From: an uncultured Verrucomicrobiae bacterium
GTDB lineage: Bacteria; Chlamydiota; Chlamydiia; Chlamydiales; Rhabdochlamydiaceae
Assembly (NCBI GenBank): GCA_963818965.1
Contig: CAWFUG010000009.1
Location: 192,001 to 256,000 of the forward strand
Length of the DNA: 64,000 nucleotides
Reading direction: 5' to 3'
Part shown: positions 326-60,100 of the stretch, in pieces
Layout of the letters: the number at the start of each line of letters is the position of its first letter
Position numbering within the stretch: position 1 is the stretch's first letter
Notes under the pieces: generated by a model
What the model was told of the DNA's origin: nothing
Seen by the model: the letters and a program-made list of their open reading frames with translations, nothing else
Database searches by the model: none
Made by a program: the position numbers and the translations under genes

Positions 326-1476
326 GACAGGTTTTCATCCTCATTTGGAAAGAGCTTTTGACTGTGTTGCGCGACCAGAAAGTGCGCATTTCGATTTTAT
401 TGCCCCCGCTCATTCAGCTCTTCGTCTTCACATTTGCCGCAACGCTCGATGTCAAAGATGTCCCGATCGGCATTTTGAATCGGGACTCAGGAGAGAAGGC
501 CTTTGAGCTTGTCGAAAGATTTTACGGGACGAAGATCTTCAACAACAAGATCATCTTCCTCAAAGGGGTCGAACAGATCGCCCCTTTCATGGATACCCAG
601 AAAGGAGTGATGGTGGTCTCCATCGATGAGCAATTCTCCCGCAATCTCGACGCTGGAAAACCCGCAGATATTCAGCTCATCTTAGACGGAAGAAAGACGA
701 ACACCGCACAAATCGTCGCAGGTTATACACAGGAGATCATCAACCGCTTTAACAACGACTACACCGCACAGGCAGATTTATACCCTGCGCGCTCAAATGC
801 ACCATCCTCAAGCGCGCGGGGTATAAAAACACAAAACATAGAACTCGTTCCACGCACCTGGTTCAATCCGAATATCCTCTATTTTTGGTACAATATCCCC
901 TGTCTCGTCTGTGTCCTTTCGATGCTGATCTGTCTCGTCGTCACGACACAATCGGTAGCCAGAGAGCGGGAACTCGGCACCTTCGATCAGCTCCTCGTCT
1001 CGCCCCTGACTCCCCGAGTGATTTTGATCGGTAAAGTCGTCCCCGGCGTCATCGTCGGCTTTTGCGAAGGGCTCGTGATGCTCATCATCGGAACCTGCGT
1101 CTTCGGCGTGCCCTTTATGGGATCTTTGCCCCTGTTTTTATTTAGCCTCATCATCTTCGTCAGCTCGATCTGCGGCGTCGGCCTCTTTATCTCCTCCCTC
1201 TCTGCAACCCAGCAGCAGGCGATGCTCGGGACATTTGTCTTCATGCTCCCCTCCGTGCTCCTCTCAGGCTTTGCGACCCCGATCGAAAACATGCCCACCT
1301 GGCTCCAGCCCGTGACTTACCTTATCCCCCTTCGGTACATGCTCGTCATCTCGAAGGGGATTTTCCTCAAAGCGATGCCCGCTAGGATCGTCCTAGAAAA
1401 CCTCTGGCCCCTCTGCGTGATCGGCCTATGCAATGGCCTAGGGGCAGCTCTATTTTTCCGCAGGAGGCTCCCATGA
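322..1476 (+). CDS. ABC-2 type transporter permease (YbhR-like) carrying a 15-aa palindromic-element insert
   Basis: Probable TTG start overlapping upstream TGA, with GAGG RBS; motifs ARERELGTFDQLLVSP and LSGFATPIENMP. Confidence 0.88.
   Translation: MRQVFILIWKELLTVLRDQKVRISILLPPLIQLFVFTFAATLDVKDVPIGILNRDSGEKAFELVERFYGTKIFNNKIIFLKGVEQIAPFMDTQKGVMVVSIDEQFSRNLDAGKPADIQLILDGRKTNTAQIVAGYTQEIINRFNNDYTAQADLYPARSNAPSSSARGIKTQNIELVPRTWFNPNILYFWYNIPCLVCVLSMLICLVVTTQSVARERELGTFDQLLVSPLTPRVILIGKVVPGVIVGFCEGLVMLIIGTCVFGVPFMGSLPLFLFSLIIFVSSICGVGLFISSLSATQQQAMLGTFVFMLPSVLLSGFATPIENMPTWLQPVTYLIPLRYMLVISKGIFLKAMPARIVLENLWPLCVIGLCNGLGAALFFRRRLP
777..827. repeat. Short TA-flanked palindromic element, in frame in the permease
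   Basis: 17-bp inverted repeats (1 mismatch) TTTATACCCTGCGCGCT/AGCGCGCGGGGTATAAA; interior nearly identical to the right arm of the 47936-48030 element. Confidence 0.9.
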
Positions 1477-9123: not shown

Positions 9124-9206
9124 AATACCAATCCTCGAATTTGGCCGATTCATAAGCTCCTGCGATCGTCAAACCGTGGGAGCTTATGAAGCCCTCAAAT
9201 GCATCA
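9124..9206. repeat. Degenerate, chimeric copy of the palindromic element family
   Basis: 12-bp IR TTCATAAGCTCC/GGAGCTTATGAA; shares CGAATTTGGCCG, ATAAGCTCC.GCGAT and CTCAAATGCA.CAT with other copies. Confidence 0.65.
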
Positions 9207-9225
9207 TTTTCCTTTTTGCAGAGAC

Positions 9226-14754: not shown

Positions 14755-14842
14755 TTTTAAAAATTTATATAAATAATTAAATTTTTTTTATACAGTATCG
14801 TGTTTTGTTTATGAGTAAGGAAGAAGTTCGATTTCTAAAAGC

Positions 14843-15304
14843 TTAGACGATTTCCTCTACGCGCAGTAGCTCATTAGGTCTTTGCAAGACAGAGGTTTCA
14901 TGGATCTGAGCAATGATTCTCCGCTGTTCAGACCAAGCGAGTCGCCCACGTGCTTCTTCAAATGACAACCACTCGTAAGCGTCGTGTTCTTTGGGAGAAA
15001 GGATAACGTCCATCGTATCGACAAACGCCACAAAAACGGGCACAAAAGTGATCTTGTCACAGCTCTTCATATAGAAAGTCTCAACCGCGTCCGCAGAATA
15101 GAGCTCCCTTGGAACCAGACTCGTCTCTTCCTGAATCTCCCGCAGCGCAGCTTGGGGCGCCGTTTCTCCCTTTAAAACTCCTCCCGAAACCATCTGCCAC
15201 GTTCCTGGCAAGTATTTTCCGCACCGTCGCAACAGCAAATACCGCGCTTGACAGACGATGAAAACAGAAACGCAATGAGGCGCAACAAAAGAAATCATTT
15301 CCAC
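14843..15304 (-). CDS. NUDIX hydrolase (NudB-like)
   Basis: Nudix box GGVLKGETAPQAALREIQEETSL. Confidence 0.9.
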   Translation of the reverse strand: MEMISFVAPHCVSVFIVCQARYLLLRRCGKYLPGTWQMVSGGVLKGETAPQAALREIQEETSLVPRELYSADAVETFYMKSCDKITFVPVFVAFVDTMDVILSPKEHDAYEWLSFEEARGRLAWSEQRRIIAQIHETSVLQRPNELLRVEEIV

Positions 15305-15840
15305 TCCGCACGTTTTAGGCGGTACAGCACTTGCCGTCTCAACGGATGATCCTCCGCGACTCTAGGATGGTCGAAATCGTCTTGGGGATCGCGGTGCATG
15401 CCGAGTTTCTCCATGACCCTTCTCGAACGCCTATTCTCCACGGCGGTAAAGGAGACGATCTCATCAAGCTCAAGCGTCTCAAAAGCATATTTCAAAGCAG
15501 CCTTCGCCCCTTCCACGGCATAGCCCTGGCCCCAATGCTCAAAAGCCAAGCGCCACCCTATTTCGACCGCAGGTACAAAAGGAGCCTTAAAGTCGACCTC
15601 TTCCAATCCAATCATCCCGATAAAGACATCAGTTTCTGCCAGTGTTACCGCCCAGAATCCCCATCCGCGCCGCGCGATATTTTTCTGACAGCGCTCAACC
15701 ATCCGATCAGATTCCTCGCGACTCATTAGACCCGTATAAAATTCCCTGACCCTAGGATCGGCATTGAGTGCAGCAAAAGGCTCCAAATCTGATTCTCGCC
15801 ATTGGCGCAGGATGAGTCGTTCTGTCTTGATTGCGGACAT
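15295..15840 (-). CDS. GNAT N-acetyltransferase (RimJ/RimL family)
   Basis: TERLILR, EIGWRL..WGQGYA and NRRSRRVMEKLG motifs. Confidence 0.92.
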   Translation of the reverse strand: MSAIKTERLILRQWRESDLEPFAALNADPRVREFYTGLMSREESDRMVERCQKNIARRGWGFWAVTLAETDVFIGMIGLEEVDFKAPFVPAVEIGWRLAFEHWGQGYAVEGAKAALKYAFETLELDEIVSFTAVENRRSRRVMEKLGMHRDPQDDFDHPRVAEDHPLRRQVLYRLKRAEWK

Positions 15841-15903
15841 AATCTACCTAAATTTGAGGGGAGGCTTTAAAAAAACCTGCATTCCTGGATAAAAAAATTT
15901 AAA

Positions 15904-17157
15904 TCACTGCCGGTTTAGGGCTGCCATTTTCCTGCTATTCCAAAACCCCAGACTCGCCAGTAGAAAACACAAGGCCCCACCCCATGCGATCAGACTCGGA
16001 TAAGCACCCACAGCAGGGCCAACAAATAAGGGACTCAACCCCATTGCAGCAGCGCATACCGACTGATAGACACCTAATACTTCCCCTTGAGATTCGTTGG
16101 AGGTGTGGTTGGATATAACCGTAGTGGCCGTAGGGTAGGCAAAGGCCAGAGAACACAGCATCAATGGGGTAATCCACCAAATATATACGGATTCAGAGGG
16201 GATCAGAAAATTCAACATGCAAACTGCCACTAAAAAAGTCGAGGCAACTGCGATTTTTTCGGGCGAGAAGCGATGCGCGAACTGGGTGGCTATCAAGGCT
16301 CCAATAGCAAACCAAGCCCCGGTATACGCATAGAACTCACCAATATGACTTAAAGAAAAATCAAACCGTTCTCGCAGCAATAAAGGAACGAACTCATTGA
16401 AAAACGACCAGCCAAAATAAAGTGCAAAACCCGCAAAAAACAGCCACCTTAAATTTTTGATTAAGAATACTTTGCGAATGTTGTATAAACCTTCTACGAA
16501 ATTGAAAGTTTTTTTCTCTAAAATTTGTCGGGTCTCTGGGAACTTCCAAACAACTAAAATTAAATTTATTAAAGACATCAATCCTGCAGCAACCAGCGGG
16601 GTAGAATAATTAAACCAACTGACGACAGTAGGGTCAGCAATGATTCCGCCTATAAAAGGCCCAACAGTGAAGCCTAAGCCAAGACAGGAGCTTAAATAAG
16701 CAAATCTTTTCGCTTTGTTTTGCTCTGTACTGATATCTGCAAGTGCTGCCTGAGCCACCGCTGCGGTTGCATCTGAGGCGCCGATAAGTATGCGATACAA
16801 AAAGAGCAGCCATAACGAACTCATATAGATCCCTAGGACAGCAATCATATAGCCGAAACAGCCTAAACTGATTCCTCCTAAAAGAGCCGGTCTTCGTCCC
16901 TTAATATCAGAAAATGTTCCCAAAACAGGCGAAAAGAAAAACTGGGAAATAGGCGTGAGTGCAATGAGAATGCCGAGCATGGCCCCTCGATATTCGGGTG
17001 AGGAGTTTGCTGGGACAATCGAATTGCTCGGGTCGAATAACAGAACTGCAAATATCGGGTAAACCAGTCCGATACCGACATAATCCACAAAAGCAACCAG
17101 AAGGATGATGCTTAAACTCAATTTGGAATTGAGTTTTAAACCACTAGGACCGTCCAT
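15904..17157 (-). CDS. MFS transporter (TetA/DHA1-like)
   Basis: GTFSDIKGRRP motif A; about 12 TM segments. Confidence 0.9.
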   Translation of the reverse strand: MDGPSGLKLNSKLSLSIILLVAFVDYVGIGLVYPIFAVLLFDPSNSIVPANSSPEYRGAMLGILIALTPISQFFFSPVLGTFSDIKGRRPALLGGISLGCFGYMIAVLGIYMSSLWLLFLYRILIGASDATAAVAQAALADISTEQNKAKRFAYLSSCLGLGFTVGPFIGGIIADPTVVSWFNYSTPLVAAGLMSLINLILVVWKFPETRQILEKKTFNFVEGLYNIRKVFLIKNLRWLFFAGFALYFGWSFFNEFVPLLLRERFDFSLSHIGEFYAYTGAWFAIGALIATQFAHRFSPEKIAVASTFLVAVCMLNFLIPSESVYIWWITPLMLCSLAFAYPTATTVISNHTSNESQGEVLGVYQSVCAAAMGLSPLFVGPAVGAYPSLIAWGGALCFLLASLGFWNSRKMAALNRQ

Positions 17158-17321
17158 GACTAAACCTCGCCTATTGGGATTTTTTGAAAAAAAGGGCCCC
17201 GTTTATAAGCTAGTCGGCTTCAATTGTCAACAGGGAAATTATTGGAGATGAAAATGAGGTGCAAGTTATCCCGAGAACAACAGAAACCTTACTTGTAGAA
17301 AAAACAACTGTTTACGCTCCG

Positions 17322-19385
17322 TTATAGGGAGTCTGTCAAGGTCAGCAGCTGTTGCAGATTGAAATAGAGATCTTCTCTTGGGCCAGGCGGTAGGGGGGTA
17401 TATTGCCAGCTCAGATCGATTTGGGGAGTATTTTGAGCAGAGAGTTTGACGAGCCCAAAGCCGAGATCGATAATGGAAGGGGATTTGTGCAGTTGAGCGA
17501 GGATTTCCTGCGCACGGCCATGTTTTTCAAAATAAGCGGCTCCTATGAAAGCGAGAAGATGCGTCTTGTCCGCCTCTTCAGAGGAAAGCCGTTCATAATA
17601 TTGAGAAGTGATTGGGGAGCTGCTTTCGCCTGTGTAGAAGCAGAGAGCAGCTTCAGTACCTTTCGATAGGAAAAAAGTCTTATTGCCCGTGACAGGATTG
17701 GGGCCGACATGATACTCATGCGAAACGCGTACATCGATCATTCGGTCGGACTCATCTAAATCGAGCATGAGATTTTCGCCGAGGAGAAGCTTCTGATCAG
17801 GTGTAAAGTGGAGTGCAAGCGCTTGGTTGTTGAGATCGGCAATAGGGAAGGCAATGGAGGTCTTTTTCTCCGGATTATCATGTGAAGCAATGTCCACTTG
17901 GACCTTGGAAAAAAGGAGAGAATCTTTATTCAAAGACTCGAAGACTTCGAGGAATCCCGTCGTCGCAGGCCGAGGAAAGTCGACCCACGAAGTGAATTGC
18001 CTCTTGATCTGTACCGGATGAATGCCGACATCTGAGAGGGAGAGTCCTTGTTTTCCCAACTCTTCTTCGACAAAACGGAGGAACAGGATTCCGAGGGTGT
18101 CATCTCCTCCCGCATCGCTATGTTTTGAAATTCTCTGATCTCCTTTTGTGTAGCGCAATAGCCAACGATCCGCACTCGCATACTCTTTTGGCATCAGGCT
18201 GTAGAGATCAAAGCCCTCATTAACTTCCATCTCTTTCATCCAGGGGAAGAGGGGAATCCACTCCTTTCCATCGAAAAAGAGGACCCAAGGATAGGCTACG
18301 AGCGCTTCAGATTCTAGGGGTGTGCAGAGCAAATTTTCTAAAAAATGCTGCGGCAAAACATAGGGGTCTCCTATTGCATATAAAGCGGTGTAACCAGCTT
18401 TGCGCAATAGGTAGACGAGGAGCTGGCATTGCTCCCAAGGGGACCCACACTTTTCTAAAAAAGTCATGCAGGCATTGCGCTGAATGCTCCGCGCGTAAAA
18501 GATCCTGCCTGCCTGGCGAGACATTCGGTTATCGAAAGCGATTTCATTCTGGACATATCTCGCAAGAGTTAACGGATCGCCCTTTAACTGGTCCACAAAG
18601 GTATCGAGAACAGGAAAGCTCTTAGCGTGTCCCTCTTCTAATTGAACCGTAGGAGCATTTCGCTTGGATTTTTTATTTTTTGGAAGCGGTTCTTTTTCCT
18701 CCAAGCGCGTAAACTTCTCTTTTAAAGCAGCGCGTTGTGTGTGCCAAGTCTCAGCTTCTGTCGCGTACTGCATCGCACCCATCTGGTGTATTTCGATGAC
18801 TTGTCGTACAGTGTTCTTGCTTTCCTCATCGGGACACCAGTCCAATGCCTCGGTTGCAAGCCCCCTAGCCTCTTCGAAACGCAAGCTCACCTCATTGAGA
18901 GTCGAGATCACTTCATCGGCGCGGTTCCAGTCGCGCTGGCAATTTTGTCCCATCTCCTGAGCGCGCTCAGCTCTCCTGATACTCTCTTCATAAAGAGGAA
19001 CCGCCTTTGCGAGATGAATCGTACGGTGGACCGCGCCTTCTAGACTGTTGATCTCAGCGCGCAGCAGCATCTGATTCTGTTTACACTGCTGCTTGATCTG
19101 TGACCACTTCTTGCGTCTGCGCTTAGGCTTGCCTGAGATCTTCTTCAATACATGATTGTAGCGATCGATCGCCTTTTGACAAGAGTGGATGGACTTATGC
19201 AAAAGTCCGATCTGCTGCTCCTGTTCCGGAAGTCCCATCCCATTGAACTGTGTGATGAGCTCATCATGCTGCTTCCAATCTGCCATAGTTTTTTCCTCTA
19301 TTTTCGCATAATCCTGCTTCCAAAACCGCGCGTAAACCAGGTTCGGCACCACAATCAACAACATCCAGATGCGCATCCATTTCAT
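17322..19385 (-). CDS. Secreted protein with transglutaminase-like domain, possibly truncated
   Basis: Signal peptide, coiled-coil N-terminal half, GSPWEQCQLLVYLLRKAGY transglutaminase-like motif. Confidence 0.55.
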   Translation of the reverse strand: MKWMRIWMLLIVVPNLVYARFWKQDYAKIEEKTMADWKQHDELITQFNGMGLPEQEQQIGLLHKSIHSCQKAIDRYNHVLKKISGKPKRRRKKWSQIKQQCKQNQMLLRAEINSLEGAVHRTIHLAKAVPLYEESIRRAERAQEMGQNCQRDWNRADEVISTLNEVSLRFEEARGLATEALDWCPDEESKNTVRQVIEIHQMGAMQYATEAETWHTQRAALKEKFTRLEEKEPLPKNKKSKRNAPTVQLEEGHAKSFPVLDTFVDQLKGDPLTLARYVQNEIAFDNRMSRQAGRIFYARSIQRNACMTFLEKCGSPWEQCQLLVYLLRKAGYTALYAIGDPYVLPQHFLENLLCTPLESEALVAYPWVLFFDGKEWIPLFPWMKEMEVNEGFDLYSLMPKEYASADRWLLRYTKGDQRISKHSDAGGDDTLGILFLRFVEEELGKQGLSLSDVGIHPVQIKRQFTSWVDFPRPATTGFLEVFESLNKDSLLFSKVQVDIASHDNPEKKTSIAFPIADLNNQALALHFTPDQKLLLGENLMLDLDESDRMIDVRVSHEYHVGPNPVTGNKTFFLSKGTEAALCFYTGESSSPITSQYYERLSSEEADKTHLLAFIGAAYFEKHGRAQEILAQLHKSPSIIDLGFGLVKLSAQNTPQIDLSWQYTPLPPGPREDLYFNLQQLLTLTDSL

Positions 19386-19737
19386 AGAGATTCCTCGTTT
19401 GAGCAAACAAAATTATTAACCAAATTCGCAGTTAAACACCAGTGACAAATCAAGCTCCTTGAAAAAAAATTTAAGAAACTTCGATCAGCGAGCTCTGAAG
19501 TTATTAAAGGAAGATAAATAATAAAAAAGTTGCGCTCATGGAGAGCTAAGGTTGTACTGGACCTTAAAAACTGTCGAACGAATCTGGATCACTTCACCTG
19601 AAATTACATCAGTACTTCTCGTCAAAATAATTCAATTGACCGACCAGTAATGATCGTGCAATATCAAATTAATGTGAGTTGGGTTTAGAACGGAGGGACG
19701 TGTTATTAAATTTCCAACAGCCGAGAGCTTCTTCTAA

Positions 19738-20856
19738 ATGTTAAAAACATTAGGGAAATATAAAGATGTAGCACGGGTAGCGATACCAGCTTTGCTAGCT
19801 ATTAGCATAGTTGAGGTTGTGAATATCCAAATGTACCTTTCTGCTCCTTTAGCTCAAGGGGGAGCTCTTGTGCTTTTTCTGTGGGTAACATTACAGATGA
19901 TCCCAGGTTTTTTGTTTGGCTACATATCGGACAAACATTTTAGAAAGGCCACACTTATTATATGTCAAATCTTGGGATTAGTGGGTGGGCTAATTCTATG
20001 GGTTTTTGGATTCGAGACGTGGGTTTTTATATTAATTGCATTGACTTTCAACCCTATTCCAGTCGCTCGAGCTGCTCTTCTCGATCATTTTCCTAAACAT
20101 TCCACAGTGAAACTCGTTTCGATTACATTTTTTGCGCAATATTTTCCCTGGGTTATGTATTCCTATATTGCTGGAATTGAATTTTCTTCTGTTTTGAAAT
20201 TTGTTCTTTTTGTTTTGGCGTTAAATACCCTATTGACGATTTTTTTATTTAAAGGTGACGTGGCCAAGCCAGAGGAAGCTCAGCCAAAAAGCGAGGGAAA
20301 AATTCAATTATTCAGGAAAAATCTTCCTCTAACCTTTACTTTGGTGGCATTTATCTTTGCAGAAGCCGCTTTTTATTTACTCTGGGCCTTCCTTGAAAAT
20401 GATCCAAATGGGCATAAGATACTTTCTGTTACAAATATGGGAACCATCCTTGGTATAGGCATCGCAATGTTGTATACCAAAGTACACCATATGTCTATCA
20501 TTACCCTTTTCTATAGTGTGGGTGCTGCAGCTACTTTTATTGCATTCACTCATTGCTTTTCGTCTTCCATAGCATGCTTTGACAACCTAACCAGCTCTAT
20601 GAGCTTTTATTGCATTATCGGTGGGATGTATTTACCTTTTGTGACTGATGGGGTAATCAAAATGTTAGGCGCGAAACATAGAGCCTTGGGGTCCGCCTTT
20701 ATTGAATTGGGAAGTACTGTTGCTGTGTTTTTTGCGCCGGTCTTGAATATTCTATACCAGCAGAATTCTTACAACATACTATTGACTATAGTGATCTTCT
20801 TGTTTTTGGCTGCTTTTTTCCAAAAAGTAGTAGAAAAGAGAATTGTTTTTCGTTGA
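19738..20856 (+). CDS. Divergent MFS-type membrane transporter
   Basis: GYISDKHFRK (motif A-like); highly hydrophobic 372 aa. Confidence 0.7.
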   Translation: MLKTLGKYKDVARVAIPALLAISIVEVVNIQMYLSAPLAQGGALVLFLWVTLQMIPGFLFGYISDKHFRKATLIICQILGLVGGLILWVFGFETWVFILIALTFNPIPVARAALLDHFPKHSTVKLVSITFFAQYFPWVMYSYIAGIEFSSVLKFVLFVLALNTLLTIFLFKGDVAKPEEAQPKSEGKIQLFRKNLPLTFTLVAFIFAEAAFYLLWAFLENDPNGHKILSVTNMGTILGIGIAMLYTKVHHMSIITLFYSVGAAATFIAFTHCFSSSIACFDNLTSSMSFYCIIGGMYLPFVTDGVIKMLGAKHRALGSAFIELGSTVAVFFAPVLNILYQQNSYNILLTIVIFLFLAAFFQKVVEKRIVFR

Positions 20857-20882
20857 TGCTTTGGATAGCTATTTTCTCAAGC

Positions 20883-21647
20883 TCATATCAACAGGCCATG
20901 TCCGCCATCCACCGTGATATTTTGACCATTAATGTGGTTGGCCATAGGAGAAAATAGCCACAGGGCTGCCTCTGCAATATCTTTTGGGGTTGCATTTTTT
21001 TTTAGGGGATTTTCGTCTTTTAATTGTTGCTTCGCTTCTTTTGAAGCAATTCTTTCAAGCATGGGCGTTTCAACGGCACCAGGACTAATTGCGTTGATTC
21101 GGATGTTTGCTTTCCCGTACTCAACAGCTGCAACTCTTGTAAGAGCGTTCACTCCAGACTTACTTGCAGTATAGATAGAAGTATTTGGTAGGGCTCGATC
21201 TGCTATTACAGAGGAAATATTGACAATGCCCCCAAATCCATGCTTTAGCATGGCTTGAATTTGGTACTTCATTGAAGTCCAAACTCCTTTCAAATTCACT
21301 CCGATTACATAATCCCAATCGGTTTCATCTTGATCTGTGAATGGAACGAATTTACCTTCAGTGCCGGCGCAATTTAAGGCAAAATCAATTCGGCCGAAGT
21401 GGCTACATGCCTCTTCCACAAACTTTCTAACAGATTCATCTTTGTCGATTTCTGTGGGAATGAACAAGATTTCTCCAGAGAAATTGGCAGTTTCTTGAAT
21501 TAGAGATTGACCAGCAATTAGATCTCTACCGCCCGCTGCCACATTCATTCCCAACTGGGAAAATAAAACAGCAGCTTCTCTTCCTATGCCAGAAGTAGCT
21601 CCAGTTACAATAACGACTTTGCCCTTGAAGAAATCGGAAGGAATCAT
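20883..21647 (-). CDS. Short-chain dehydrogenase/reductase (classical)
   Basis: TGATSGIG, NCAG and YTASK motifs. Confidence 0.92.
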   Translation of the reverse strand: MIPSDFFKGKVVIVTGATSGIGREAAVLFSQLGMNVAAGGRDLIAGQSLIQETANFSGEILFIPTEIDKDESVRKFVEEACSHFGRIDFALNCAGTEGKFVPFTDQDETDWDYVIGVNLKGVWTSMKYQIQAMLKHGFGGIVNISSVIADRALPNTSIYTASKSGVNALTRVAAVEYGKANIRINAISPGAVETPMLERIASKEAKQQLKDENPLKKNATPKDIAEAALWLFSPMANHINGQNITVDGGHGLLI

Positions 21648-21675
21648 CTTAAGTCTCCTTATTGGAATCGGTGTT

Positions 21676-22818
21676 TTAAAGGCCTTGCAACTCCAGGTGT
21701 TCTCTTTTCACCTTAGCCTCGAGCTGGTGGTCCAATGCGATGATCCCTTGGATGGAACCTTGTAGGTTGCGCGCTTGAAGGATTCCAGCTGTTATGAGGG
21801 CGATTGTCAATTGGATCAGCTCGGGGGCAATATTTTCCCTGTCTCCATCGAAATTTACAGGAAAGCCGCTATTGATCAAGAGTAAATTCTCTACGGATAA
21901 GTCTTGATGGCAGATTTCTGTCTTAGAGATGCGTTTTCTCAAATGATGGGAGTCGAATTCTCTGTCAGAGGATGAAACGCTAACTAGTGCTGTGCCAGCC
22001 GATAATGAGGAGTGTAGGTGTTGTGGAATACTAGTTGTACCCGTACATCCGATAATCAAGCGGAAATCTTGCAGAATATTAGGTAGCTCGCCTGCGCAGT
22101 CGCTGATCGATTCGTCTTTGTCATAAATAAAGACACTCATATCAGGGGATAGTTTTTCTTTGATCGCTTGCCCGATGGCGCCGCCACCGATGATGAGGGC
22201 TTGTTCAAAAGCCAAATCCCTTTCTTTCAAGCTCTTGTATAGGCGTTCTGCTGCGGCTTGAGCGATCATGGGCGATTCTAACGAGAGTTTTACGGGGGAA
22301 CGCGCGACGTTAATGACGGGAAAGGTTAAGTGGCAAGAGCGAATGGCCTCATATCCTGATGAGGTCTGCTCTATGGCGACAATGGAGACGTTATTTGGCA
22401 AATTTTCGCTGAGGTATTTGATGCATTTACCCCCATCGTCCAGGACAATAATGTGATCGTAAGAGTCGCTGGATAAATCGGAGAGTCTTTCTGAAAGGAA
22501 GCTTTGTATTTTTTGATCAAAAAAGTCATCGAAAGGATGATGCGAGGAATAGAATAGACTTCCTGCGCATACATCAATGCCATCCTTTAACATCTCTTCA
22601 TAGACCTCTTTACAGGAAGAATAGCATTTGCCTATGAGAGAGATGTTTTCTGGTTTCACGCCCAATCGATAAAGGGATTGAAACATCGAATGTGTGGTCT
22701 CGAGAATGTGTTGGACTCCGATGATTTTCACATTCGATAGGGATAGACCTTGATAGGAGTCAATCAGAGATTCTACCAGAGGAAGAATGAGGTTGGGGGA
22801 TTGGCTGGTCGATGTCAT
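21676..22818 (-). CDS. Divergent S-adenosylhomocysteine hydrolase-like NAD-binding protein
   Basis: VQHILETT, LDDGG, IEQTSSG, PVINVARSPVK, GGGAIG and GFPVNF follow the order of the AdoHcyase motifs. Confidence 0.75.
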   Translation of the reverse strand: MTSTSQSPNLILPLVESLIDSYQGLSLSNVKIIGVQHILETTHSMFQSLYRLGVKPENISLIGKCYSSCKEVYEEMLKDGIDVCAGSLFYSSHHPFDDFFDQKIQSFLSERLSDLSSDSYDHIIVLDDGGKCIKYLSENLPNNVSIVAIEQTSSGYEAIRSCHLTFPVINVARSPVKLSLESPMIAQAAAERLYKSLKERDLAFEQALIIGGGAIGQAIKEKLSPDMSVFIYDKDESISDCAGELPNILQDFRLIIGCTGTTSIPQHLHSSLSAGTALVSVSSSDREFDSHHLRKRISKTEICHQDLSVENLLLINSGFPVNFDGDRENIAPELIQLTIALITAGILQARNLQGSIQGIIALDHQLEAKVKREHLELQGL

Positions 22819-27985: not shown

Positions 27986-29000
27986 ATGCTCTTATTCTTC
28001 CTTCGACTGTTCCTATTGTTGCTCACTCCTTCTTTTTTTCTCTATTCGCTCGATGTTCTTAATTATGACTTGCATGTTTTTTCTGTGCCGGGAAAGAGCG
28101 AACGGGTGATGCTCTGTTTCCATGGCTATGGAGGTAATTACGAGATTGCCTTGTCGCTTAAAAATCTAAAAACCATAGACGCTACTCTTGTGAGCTTCAA
28201 CTTTCCTGATTATGACATTGAGCAAAGAGGTGAGTACGATTATCGCAAGATGACATTTGGCACGATCGATGAGCTTTTGCCAGCTCTGCACGTCATGAAG
28301 CAGATCGTGCTGGATGGGGGAAGAAAAAGAGATCGATCTGTATGGATTTTCTGCAGGGGGCGGCGTTTTGATCAACGTACTTGGAGTGCTCAATACTTCC
28401 ACTTATGATGCTAGGCTTGAGGCAATGGGGATTGGAGCGGTGGAAAAAGAGAAGCTTCTCGCTGCAATTCAGAGGGGAATGGTGATTTTGGATACGCCTC
28501 TTATACTGCGCCCGGTCAGGAATTGCGAATTTGAGCCTTTGATCAGCTCCCGCGATTCCACGATCGAAAAGGGGGCCAGTATTGAGGAAATACAGGCCCC
28601 CTTTTCGATCGTGGAATCCCGGGGCTTTGACGCGCTCAAATTCACAATTCCTGACCGGGCGCAGTATAAATCGATCGAAGAGATCATTGCCTGTAGAAGC
28701 TCGACGGGTGAATTGGAGTGGTTGGCGAAAAATTATCGGGACAATCACTTCAGACCGATTGACTCGCTTAGATTGCTCCAGGGATTGTCTTTGGATGTTT
28801 TGTTGTATTTTCAGGAGGGAGATGAAATTCTCTCGAATCGAGATGATGACCTGTATATAGAGAGGTTGCGAGAGACTCAGCAAAAAATCGCAGTGATCAG
28901 GGGCAGTGAAGGGGGACATCAGTCTGCTCACCTGCCACTTTGGCAATTTTATGCGCAAAAAATGGAGGGAGAAGATGTTGGCACAACAGTATTGGAATGA
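27986..29000 (+). pseudogene. Secreted alpha/beta hydrolase split by a +1 frameshift at G5 (28316-28320), with a 55-aa in-frame element insert
   Basis: CFHGYGG in one frame, YGFSAGG elbow and GGH in the next frame; may be a sequencing indel. Confidence 0.7.
28501..28669. repeat. Full-length nested palindromic element (MITE-like), TA-flanked
   Basis: 36-bp terminal IR (1 mismatch) enclosing a perfect 24-bp inner IR (28554-28577/28595-28618). Confidence 0.95.
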
Positions 29001-29622
29001 CGTGGGATCGAAGAAAGTGTTTGAGGATCCGCTTTATTTGGACAAACTCGCGCCTTTCTTAGAGCCGACGGATCAGATCGTCGAATATGGGTGTGGCTAC
29101 GGCCGCATGATGCGCCTGTTAAAAGCTGCAGGGTATGAGAATTTAGTGGGTTTTGATTTTGCGCCGAATATGATTGCGCGGGGGCTGAGCGAAAATCCCG
29201 ATCTCGATTTGAAGGTATTGGACGAGGTGGGGGTGATTCCTTGTGAGGAAGCGTCTGTCGATGCAGTGGTCATGTCGACAGTTCTCTGTTGTATGACGGA
29301 AGACCGGGAGCTGGTGGCGTTAATGGGAGAGATCGAGCGGGTGTTGAAGAGCGGTGGTGTGCTGTATCTGACTGATTTTCTCATCTGCGAGCATCCCCGG
29401 TATCGGGAGCGGTATGCGGTGGGGTTGGAGCGATTTGGAATGCAGGGGATCTATACGACGAATGAGGATCTGACGGTGCGGCATTTTACGGCGAAGGCGA
29501 TTATCGATTTGTTGGACTCTTTTGATATCCAATGGTTTGAGCAGTTCGATTTTAAGACGATGAACCAAAACCCAGCGCGGACGTTTCATTGCATCGCTAG
29601 AAAAGGGAGTGGACTTAATTAG
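28975..29622 (+). CDS. Class I SAM-dependent methyltransferase
   Basis: VEYGCGYGR motif I; GFDFAPNM; RVLKSGGVLY; GGAGGG RBS. Confidence 0.9.
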   Translation: MLAQQYWNDVGSKKVFEDPLYLDKLAPFLEPTDQIVEYGCGYGRMMRLLKAAGYENLVGFDFAPNMIARGLSENPDLDLKVLDEVGVIPCEEASVDAVVMSTVLCCMTEDRELVALMGEIERVLKSGGVLYLTDFLICEHPRYRERYAVGLERFGMQGIYTTNEDLTVRHFTAKAIIDLLDSFDIQWFEQFDFKTMNQNPARTFHCIARKGSGLN

Positions 29623-47855: not shown

Positions 47856-48031
47856 TATAGTGAACTCAAAAATTGGCCGTAGGGCCGCTTGATAAGCTCC
47901 CGCGATTGAGTTGCCAAAGAGGCGTGTTGTCTTATTACCCCGCGCGCTTGAGGATGGTGCATTCGAGCCTTTGATCAGCCCCCGCAGTTCGACGCGCTCA
48001 AATGCACCATCCTCAAGCACGTGGGGTATAA
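47856..48031. repeat. Composite palindromic element: left-arm fragment plus complete 33-bp-IR element
   Basis: 47856-47907 matches the 42565 arm and the 28501 core; IR at 47936-47968/47996-48028 ending GGGGTATAA. Confidence 0.88.
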
Positions 48032-59722: not shown

Positions 59723-59860
59723 GAGGATTGCGAATTTGAGCGGTACATAAAAGCCCCGGGGTTTCACGATCGGAGAGGGAACCTGTATTTCTTCAATACT
59801 GGCCCCCTTTCCGATCGTGAAATCGCGGGAGCTTTCACGCGGCTTAAATTCGCAATCCTC
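59723..59860. repeat. Nested palindromic element, inverted relative to the 28501 copy
   Basis: 19-bp outer IR (1 mismatch); 59750-59833 matches the reverse complement of 28545-28628 at 75/84 nt by manual alignment. Confidence 0.92.
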
Positions 59861-59875
59861 AAACGGGTGGGATAT

Positions 59876-60100
59876 ATGAAAAACATGAATATTTTGCTAA
59901 GCATTTTTTGTTTGTCTCTTGTGTCAAATGCACAGTGTGAAGAGAAAAAACATCCCCAACATCTTGCAGATGACCATGGCGAGCATCATGATCACGGCGA
60001 TGGAGATCATGACGGCCATCACGATGGGGATGAGCATCATGATGGCGATAGGCATCATGACGACGAACATCGTGATGATGATAAACATTGGTATGACTAG
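59876..60100 (+). CDS. Small secreted His/Asp-rich protein (putative metal binder)
   Basis: Signal peptide followed by HHD/GD repeats. Confidence 0.7.
   Translation: MKNMNILLSIFCLSLVSNAQCEEKKHPQHLADDHGEHHDHGDGDHDGHHDGDEHHDGDRHHDDEHRDDDKHWYD

Follow-up and report, generated by a model that had tools for sequence, protein, structure and literature searches.

Protein-coding palindromic repeats have so far been treated as a peculiarity of Rickettsia. In the summaries given by PMC10969869, PMC1166351 and PMC1779305, the elements RPE-1 to RPE-10 (Ogata et al. 2000, 2002) are palindromic dispersed repeats of the 100-150-bp class, abundant between and within the genes of obligate intracellular bacteria; read in frame, they add a conserved peptide to unrelated enzymes, and they have spread in lineage-specific bursts with no known transposase. 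Bacterial MITEs, as outlined in PMC10969869, are small, lack transposase coding, have terminal inverted repeats and a target-site duplication, are present in many copies and are occasionally fused in frame with ORFs. PARCELs, in the account of PMC2996958, are coding DNA with dyad symmetry that adds repeat peptides, in tandem arrays of a 25-residue motif within dedicated surface-protein ORFs. The REP/BIME repeats mobilised by RAYT (Y1/HUH) transposases, in the description of PMC3733652, are hairpin repeats whose structure is conserved more than a long terminal repeat, the REPs being 20-40 bp long and extragenic. Judged from titles and abstracts in the literature, we found no paper describing palindromic elements of such a kind in chlamydiae.

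Here we report the same behaviour, base by base, in a chlamydia. The window, that is, the whole stretch of 64,000 nucleotides analysed, contains at 28502..28668 a near-perfectly palindromic element of 167 bp including a TA at each end, with a net insertion of 165 bp, which is the best full-length match to a family profile (E 1.3e-56). In our view it is very probably a palindromic mobile element, non-autonomous and directed to TA, of MITE type and with RPE-like behaviour, that was inserted recently. As in RPEs, we are dealing with a palindromic dispersed repeat of about the 100-150-bp class, in coding and non-coding DNA, in lineage-specific bursts and with no known transposase. Unlike in RPEs, the host is chlamydial by the names of its homologues (Chlamydiota) and not one of the Rickettsiales, and for this reason we would liken the element to RPEs by behaviour only, without filing it as one.

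The preliminary description of this DNA had pointed to two TA dinucleotides 165 bp apart, a 36-bp outer inverted repeat, a perfect 24-bp inner repeat and at least three stop-free frames, and re-examination of the letters agrees with each of these. The TAs lie at 28502..28503 and 28667..28668, and are read as a target-site duplication from the orthologous and sister-copy empty sites described below. The outer arms (28501..28536 and 28634..28669) are 36 nt long and 97% complementary, and they carry the termini TATAC...GTATA common to the copies. The inner hairpin (28549..28623), with its CGATCG boxes, is formed by arms at 28549-28583 and 28589-28623 of 35 nt and 94% complementarity, inside which runs the perfect 24-nt stretch GATTCCACGATCGAAAAGGGGGCC, as read off the printed arms. 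The element folds at -132 kcal/mol as RNA, against a mean of -53.8 for 200 shuffles with none as good (z -20.9); the folding energy of the DNA is -80 kcal/mol (z -16.8). Stops through this copy number 4, 0, 1, 4, 0 and 0 in the six frames, leaving three frames stop-free, which match the ORFs 28314-29000(+), 28293-28958(-) and 28469-28687(-). In the host frame, according to the ORF list and the alignments, the element supplies 55 codons (28503..28667, forward strand) for the peptide ILRPVRNCEFEPLISSRDSTIEKGASIEEIQAPFSIVESRGFDALKFTIPDRAQY, which is hydrophilic and acidic (GRAVY -0.27, pI 4.9); the open frames encode this 55-residue peptide only, and no transposase ORF. When the element was queried against Rfam, the sole matches were miRNA hairpins below threshold, with intron families not among them, and a promoter and terminator scan of it gave no signal above shuffles.

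The comparison with related genomes shows what the locus looks like without the element. The hydrolase gene is present in 15 of 40 related genomes by six-frame search, and in those 15 the match splits into query residues ~5-63 and 117/119-215/223 at adjoining coordinates. The 55 residues between DTPL and KSIEEI are absent from 11/11 aligned orthologue ORFs and from 60/60 aligned homologues: the clean gap anticipated in the preliminary description is there, and the contrary case that it had named, orthologues free of the repeat but keeping the segment, does not occur among them. As it had also stated, excision of the 165 bp restores ILDTPL-KSIEEII, and the flanking residues P171, L172 | K173, S174 (orthologue numbering) are invariant in the 60 homologues. 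At the DNA level, 4 of the 11 orthologues have the empty site CCT CTT AAA TCT, the same as the window flanks CCT CT-TA...TA-AA TCG but for the last letter. A TA is found at the orthologous empty site in 7 of the 11, and the closest empty orthologue is 68% identical. The element went into the TA that straddles the Leu|Lys codons (CCT CT-TA-AA TCG) of the chlamydial hydrolase gene, and this TA was duplicated on insertion. With a net gain of 165 bp and a stop-free frame in use, the gene stays open with 55 extra residues. The claim of an in-frame repeat insertion adding 55 amino acids is thus supported by the orthologue gap, by a multi-copy family and by the empty site of a sister copy.

This family is seen all over the genome (assembly of 2.24 Mb, 87.85% complete), with 88 places by blastn and 119 by profile search. 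Full-length copies spanning the whole model make up 32 of the 119, and 22 of these 32 are exactly 167 bp long; the nearest sister of the window copy is 99% identical. The 35-nt terminus, allowing at most 2 mismatches, occurs 91 times in this genome and not at all in 128 other genomes of the same taxonomic family, while its reversed control pattern has 0 occurrences versus the 91. A filled and an empty site can be compared within the assembly, where contig C5 and its 94%-identical duplicate on C12 differ by the element copy C12:76253-76419. The empty C5 reads ...CCATT-TA-AGCTTC... and the filled C12 reads ...CAAGT-TA-[element]-TA-AACTTC..., with a net gain of 165 bp. This shows the TA target duplication at the DNA level for this sister copy, a filled site that is described equally well as a TA-ending element placed beside a TA without duplication. 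TA-duplicating MITEs include the Correia elements of Neisseria and those derived from IS630/Tc1-mariner. In addition, C5 and C12:70061-77669 are near-duplicates as a whole (94-96% identity), as are C4:1-8042 / 14818-22227 and C12:107355-115382 (99.5% identity), C4 itself being a large inverted duplication; these C4 and C5 duplicates of C12 may reflect variant strains or a redundancy of the assembly, and slightly raise the repeat counts.

Besides the full copy, the family profile finds in the window a copy of 153 bp truncated at one end (59724..59876), a partial copy with the left terminus and an internal deletion (47934..47994), and an internal fragment of 49 bp (9160..9208). There is also a 47-bp deletion derivative (14-nt stem, 19-nt loop, net 45 bp), of which 12 dispersed TA-flanked copies are present in the genome, 4 of them in long open frames. 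One lies in the window at 779..825, in the ABC-2 permease ORF 148-1476, where it adds in frame the 15 residues YPARSNAPSSSARGI; the permease orthologues of relatives are 13-16 codons shorter over the matched span around 779-825. Since 12 copies of this miniature have been mobile, very little sequence is needed in cis, and the derivative thereby narrows the cis-requirements for mobilisation. At C1:65973-66536, 564 bp with an unrelated interior are enclosed by family termini, and this may be a longer non-autonomous relative of the palindromic family.

Three other explanations of the extra segment were weighed against a recent insertion. The segment might be ancestral and lost from all other lineages, which we regard as next to impossible: nothing beyond its presence in the window gene speaks for it, whereas it is missing from every one of the 11 orthologues and 60 homologues, its DNA is a dispersed repeat with 119 places, and it is bounded by TA where the orthologous empty sites read CTT AAA. 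The repeat might instead have been mis-joined into the hydrolase gene during assembly, as no short-read contig of the runs X1-X4 bridges the element and small indel errors are apparent in the assembly. Yet the homologue P0138, from another assembly (18,074-bp contig), has the same insert at this very place, and the junctions are base-exact, flanked by TA left and right, and preserve the frame; a mis-join is therefore very improbable. A 36-nt piece in run X3, whose ends are loose on both sides, belongs to another copy elsewhere. Hardly more credible is a removal of the hairpin after transcription or translation, in the manner of an intron or intein, which would leave the mature protein without the insert. 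The very stable RNA hairpin is in keeping with such a removal, but the Rfam search matched no intron family, no intein features are visible in the peptide, and the rarity of G-U pairs in the covariation given below argues for a constraint on DNA and not on RNA.

Insertion of the family into genes is not confined to the hydrolase. With a strict proxy for open ORFs (no fewer than 40 open codons to either side and 180 overall), the genome-wide tally of in-frame coding insertions that had been proposed along with the first reading places 9 of the 32 full copies in long open ORFs, those of AroA, an RlmCD-type methyltransferase and SulP among them, all 9 with a length divisible by three (3n), as are 14 of the remaining 23. 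With a looser proxy (stop-to-stop, at least 200 codons), long ORFs hold 16 of the 32 full copies and 32 of the 119 places, compared with 75.6% of the TA sites. Measured against the TA sites, coding copies are thus depleted, yet common, and most coding insertions are probably selected against; intragenic copies would persist only where length and frame leave the ORF open. The host ORFs include EPSP synthase (AroA), an RlmCD-type methyltransferase, SulP, a MenC-like protein, an LRR protein and RecC. The two halves of AroA map to residues 15-216 and 221-421 of the E. coli EPSP synthase, and in the AroA of relatives they are 9-15 nt apart with a clean gap. Likewise, the halves of the RlmCD-type methyltransferase map to residues 7-221 and 220-449 of 5xj1, and in its orthologue in the relative genome G014 they stand 6 nt apart, again with a clean gap. 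Of the eight host ORFs aligned, seven share one reading phase of the element (xxT|ATA), and AroA uses another; by a second count, seven of the eight aligned are same-phase hosts other than the hydrolase. The same-phase hosts have in common the peptide I(L/P)RPVRNCEFE..SSRDSTIEKGASIEEIQAPFSIVESRGFDALKF.IPDRA.Y. Thus, as with RPEs, a conserved peptide is added in frame to unrelated proteins, in eight host ORFs, with gaps seen in the hydrolase, AroA and the RlmCD-type enzyme. For the MenC-like host ORF, the N-terminal part bearing the element is unmatched in relatives, and a host ORF of 343 aa has no homologue in the 5 genomes searched. One family copy lies upstream of a TylF-like methyltransferase, another where a PD40 propeller ORF ends (3'), and each may have disrupted a gene. 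A related element peptide also occurs in P0123 (279 aa) and P0132 (337 aa) of other public assemblies, in host proteins that this genome either lacks or matches at just 82% identity, so that close relatives possess coding insertions of the family that are their own.

By its modelled fold, the hydrolase host is an alpha/beta hydrolase. In the PDB, the model of the orthologue (pLDDT 92.1, pTM 0.89) has no fewer than 500 matches at E<=0.001, with monoacylglycerol lipases and esterases at the top (probability 1.00, TM ~0.5-0.56), and its structure-atlas neighbours are alpha/beta hydrolases as well. At the sequence level, no Pfam family is matched at E<=0.01 by the window ORFs of the gene, the 60 homologues give sub-threshold Pfam matches only (Palm_thioest in 17, Abhydrolase_1 in 8), and the PDB sequence matches of the hydrolase are marginal. 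The HG oxyanion motif (H46, G47), the G-x-S-x-G nucleophile elbow (G120, S122, G124), the acid (D224/D232) and the His (H258/H262) are invariant in the 60 homologues, and all are kept in the window copy. On the orthologue model the insertion point falls in the loop 170-174, between the strand 165-169 and the helix 175-182, and a three-helix segment begins there and precedes the strand 215-221; the site thus lies between the GFSAGG elbow (nucleophile Ser122) and the Asp/His, just where the preliminary description had put it. This position is the usual site of caps in alpha/beta hydrolases, and the lids of monoacylglycerol-lipase-like hydrolases sit there. The insert-bearing model (pLDDT 83.6) has the same core strands and helices as the one without the insert, and the inserted residues 173-227 are modelled as coil, with pLDDT <50 over 188-227; such low values are expected because alignment depth is lacking there, and are no proof of disorder. 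The core fold is predicted to be untouched, with the insert bulging from a short loop on the surface where the cap-position helices begin. The insert splits the strictly invariant PL|KS motif, so that, judged by this conservation, its tolerance is not assured. The 3' end of the hydrolase is overlapped by a class I SAM methyltransferase ORF (28906-29622; Methyltransf_11, E 1.6e-15), an arrangement which suggests that the two genes may be co-transcribed.

The gene is broken in this assembly by a frameshift upstream of the element. Its N-terminal reading frame (27986..28408, forward strand) is coding to ~28323, followed by a tail out of frame, and equals P0138 residues 1-113; its C-terminal reading frame (28314..29000, forward strand) is the ORF of 228 aa with GFSAGG, the insert, Asp and His, and 225 of 227 residues match P0138. 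The likely site of the 1-bp shift is an A5 homopolymer at 28324..28328 on the forward strand, as judged from an X3 contig and from P0138. That contig (depth 2) is identical over 28243-28394 except for being one base shorter at 28324 (in-frame A4), P0138 reads GGRKEIDLY at this position, and the orthologue spacing fits one extra base in this assembly. The frameshift noted in the preliminary description is accordingly real in this assembly, whereas its placement in the G5 run at 28316-28320 gives way to the A5 run, the X3 contig being the sole read evidence. The 90% cluster of the 228-aa ORF holds P0138, which comes from another assembly and is intact at 337 aa with the insert included, and also P0137, a frameshifted ORF of 140 aa from a further assembly; intact and frameshifted forms are therefore both on record. 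Of 33 invariant residues the window copy retains 32, and of 41 near-invariant ones 39, a conservation that would be weak evidence against decay, the insertion being young. Near-identical duplicates in the assembly differ by 14 indel events (12 of 1 bp) versus 27 substitutions in 8 kb, and this indel excess hints at uncorrected indel errors in the assembly, without deciding the frameshift.

What the insertion means for the enzyme can be read in more than one way. It may have inactivated the enzyme, leaving a young pseudogene in which the 1-bp frameshift is the first further lesion. For this possibility speak the splitting of the invariant P171-L172|K173-S174, the frameshifted form both in this assembly and as P0137, and the shortage of full copies in long ORFs (16/32) compared with their share of TA sites. 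Against it stand the intact 337-aa allele with the insert and the short contig with its in-frame A4, the core fold kept in the model, the 32 of 33 invariant residues retained (although the insertion is too young for visible decay) and the indels in the duplicates that suggest uncorrected errors; on balance we think an inactivated gene unlikely, though by no means far-fetched. The caution voiced from the outset that the gene may be decaying is thereby weakened, its frameshift being present here while an intact allele with the insert exists elsewhere. Conversely, the 55 residues might now serve as a co-opted extension of cap or lid, functional in altering substrate access. The site, where the three-helix segment between the strands 165-169 and 215-221 begins, would suit such a role, as would the hydrophilic and acidic nature of the peptide. 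However, the same peptide occurs in unrelated proteins, the 99% identity to the sister copy leaves no time for adaptation, and the segment is present in no orthologue and without a confident structure, which makes co-option improbable. We would rather see the insert as a tolerated passenger that brings no new functional domain.

Related elements were also found beyond this genome. The relatives match the inner part only, at positions 44-142 of the 167 with 71-78% identity, in 19 of 60 other genomes, so that the inner hairpin (28549-28623) is the part conserved across genera. The copies retrieved from relatives have the same architecture, TATACC...GGTATA, and are 164-167 bp long. The inner-box pattern occurs in at least 100 matching stretches in public MAGs, and among the matches listed are Waddliaceae, Simkaniaceae, Rhabdochlamydiaceae, Parachlamydiaceae and Chlamydiota MAGs, along with a few that bear other labels. 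In 19 copies from 10 genomes, both sides change in 43 of 62 pairs, and 97.1% of the cells are paired versus 78.2% in shuffles, none of 500 shuffles reaching 97.1%; a separate count over 41 copies has both sides changing in 50 of 60 pairs. G-U pairs are rare, and the constraint therefore looks to be at the DNA level. Public copies are 162-167 bp long, and the length is 3n in 18 of the 40 with clear termini, which rules out 3n length as a general adaptation of the superfamily. Stop-free frames, which the preliminary description took to favour tolerated coding insertions, and a 3n length are features of this subfamily and not of the wider superfamily. A profile of the peptide, run against 1.84 billion proteins, finds just 17 representatives at E<=0.001; as these are mostly ORFs of this very genome, they give little information on the spread.

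Set beside the systems described at the beginning, the element agrees with MITEs in its small size, its terminal inverted repeats of 36 nt, its target-site duplication and its multiple dispersed copies (119 places, 32 full length), and differs in that neither the assembly nor two metagenome scans yielded a cognate autonomous IS sharing its ends, and that the whole 167 bp, not the termini alone, are palindromic with arm-to-arm covariation. From RPEs it is set apart further by the TA target duplication shown here, by an inner hairpin, and not the ends only, conserved between genera, and by the mobile 47-bp mini-derivative. In contrast to the tandem arrays of PARCELs, we see single dispersed TA-flanked insertions into housekeeping enzymes. 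In contrast to REP/BIME, no Y1_Tnp gene was found in the assembly searched, and TA is duplicated. Taking these observations together, we put forward, as a tentative proposal that we would not yet call probable, an order-wide chlamydial superfamily of fully palindromic elements, in which the inner CGATCG hairpin and not the termini is conserved and co-varies, which would be mobilised by a hairpin-recognising enzyme, and which would form a second, independent origin of protein-coding palindromes, repeatedly seeding loops of 15 to 55 residues into essential enzymes of obligate intracellular bacteria. Documented here are a filled and an empty site, a TA target, an intact allele from another assembly, and insertions of sister copies into AroA, an rRNA methyltransferase and transporters; a second, phylogenetically independent system thereby becomes available for asking how gene-dense intracellular genomes tolerate selfish DNA in essential genes, and whether palindromic inserts are a source of new protein loops.

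As to the mobilising enzyme, the family would have spread by cut-or-copy transposition, with an enzyme acting in trans and absent from this assembly. A TA target points to IS630/Tc1-mariner-like or IS5-group chemistry, and an enzyme that recognises structure would be compatible with the conserved inner hairpin and whole-length covariation. No transposase with family termini was found in this assembly, which is 87.85% complete, nor were members of five transposase families, the searches covering IS630 (PF13358, NF033545), IS1380 (NF033539), the IS5/IS427 group (PF13586) and Y1/HUH (PF01797). Paired solo family ends enclose no transposase; one such pair, C4:10236-12633, considered as a 2.4-kb parent, turned out to be a large inverted duplication without a transposase, and the other pairs have ordinary ORFs inside. 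Family termini were also sought in metagenome contigs, with 0 stretches in two scans. Among the elements with a transposase of their own, a 1.2-kb IS is present in three 99.9%-identical copies (C1:260607-261808, C2:149485-150685 and C9:457884-459084); it encodes a 379-aa DDE_Tnp_1 transposase and has the ends CTTTGTACAGGACAAAATTT, unrelated to the palindromic family. Both this IS and a single DDE_Tnp_1 element were rejected as parents, their ends differing from those of the family. Finally, an IS110-family element of 1.73 kb is present in 2 copies (C2:48810-50536 and C9:448489-450216), with ~100-bp derivatives of both its ends next to C9:475497, C2:40424 and C7:27711. At four places, the element or its derivatives abut TATAC ends belonging to the palindromes, which suggests that the IS110-type element targets the ends of the palindromic family.
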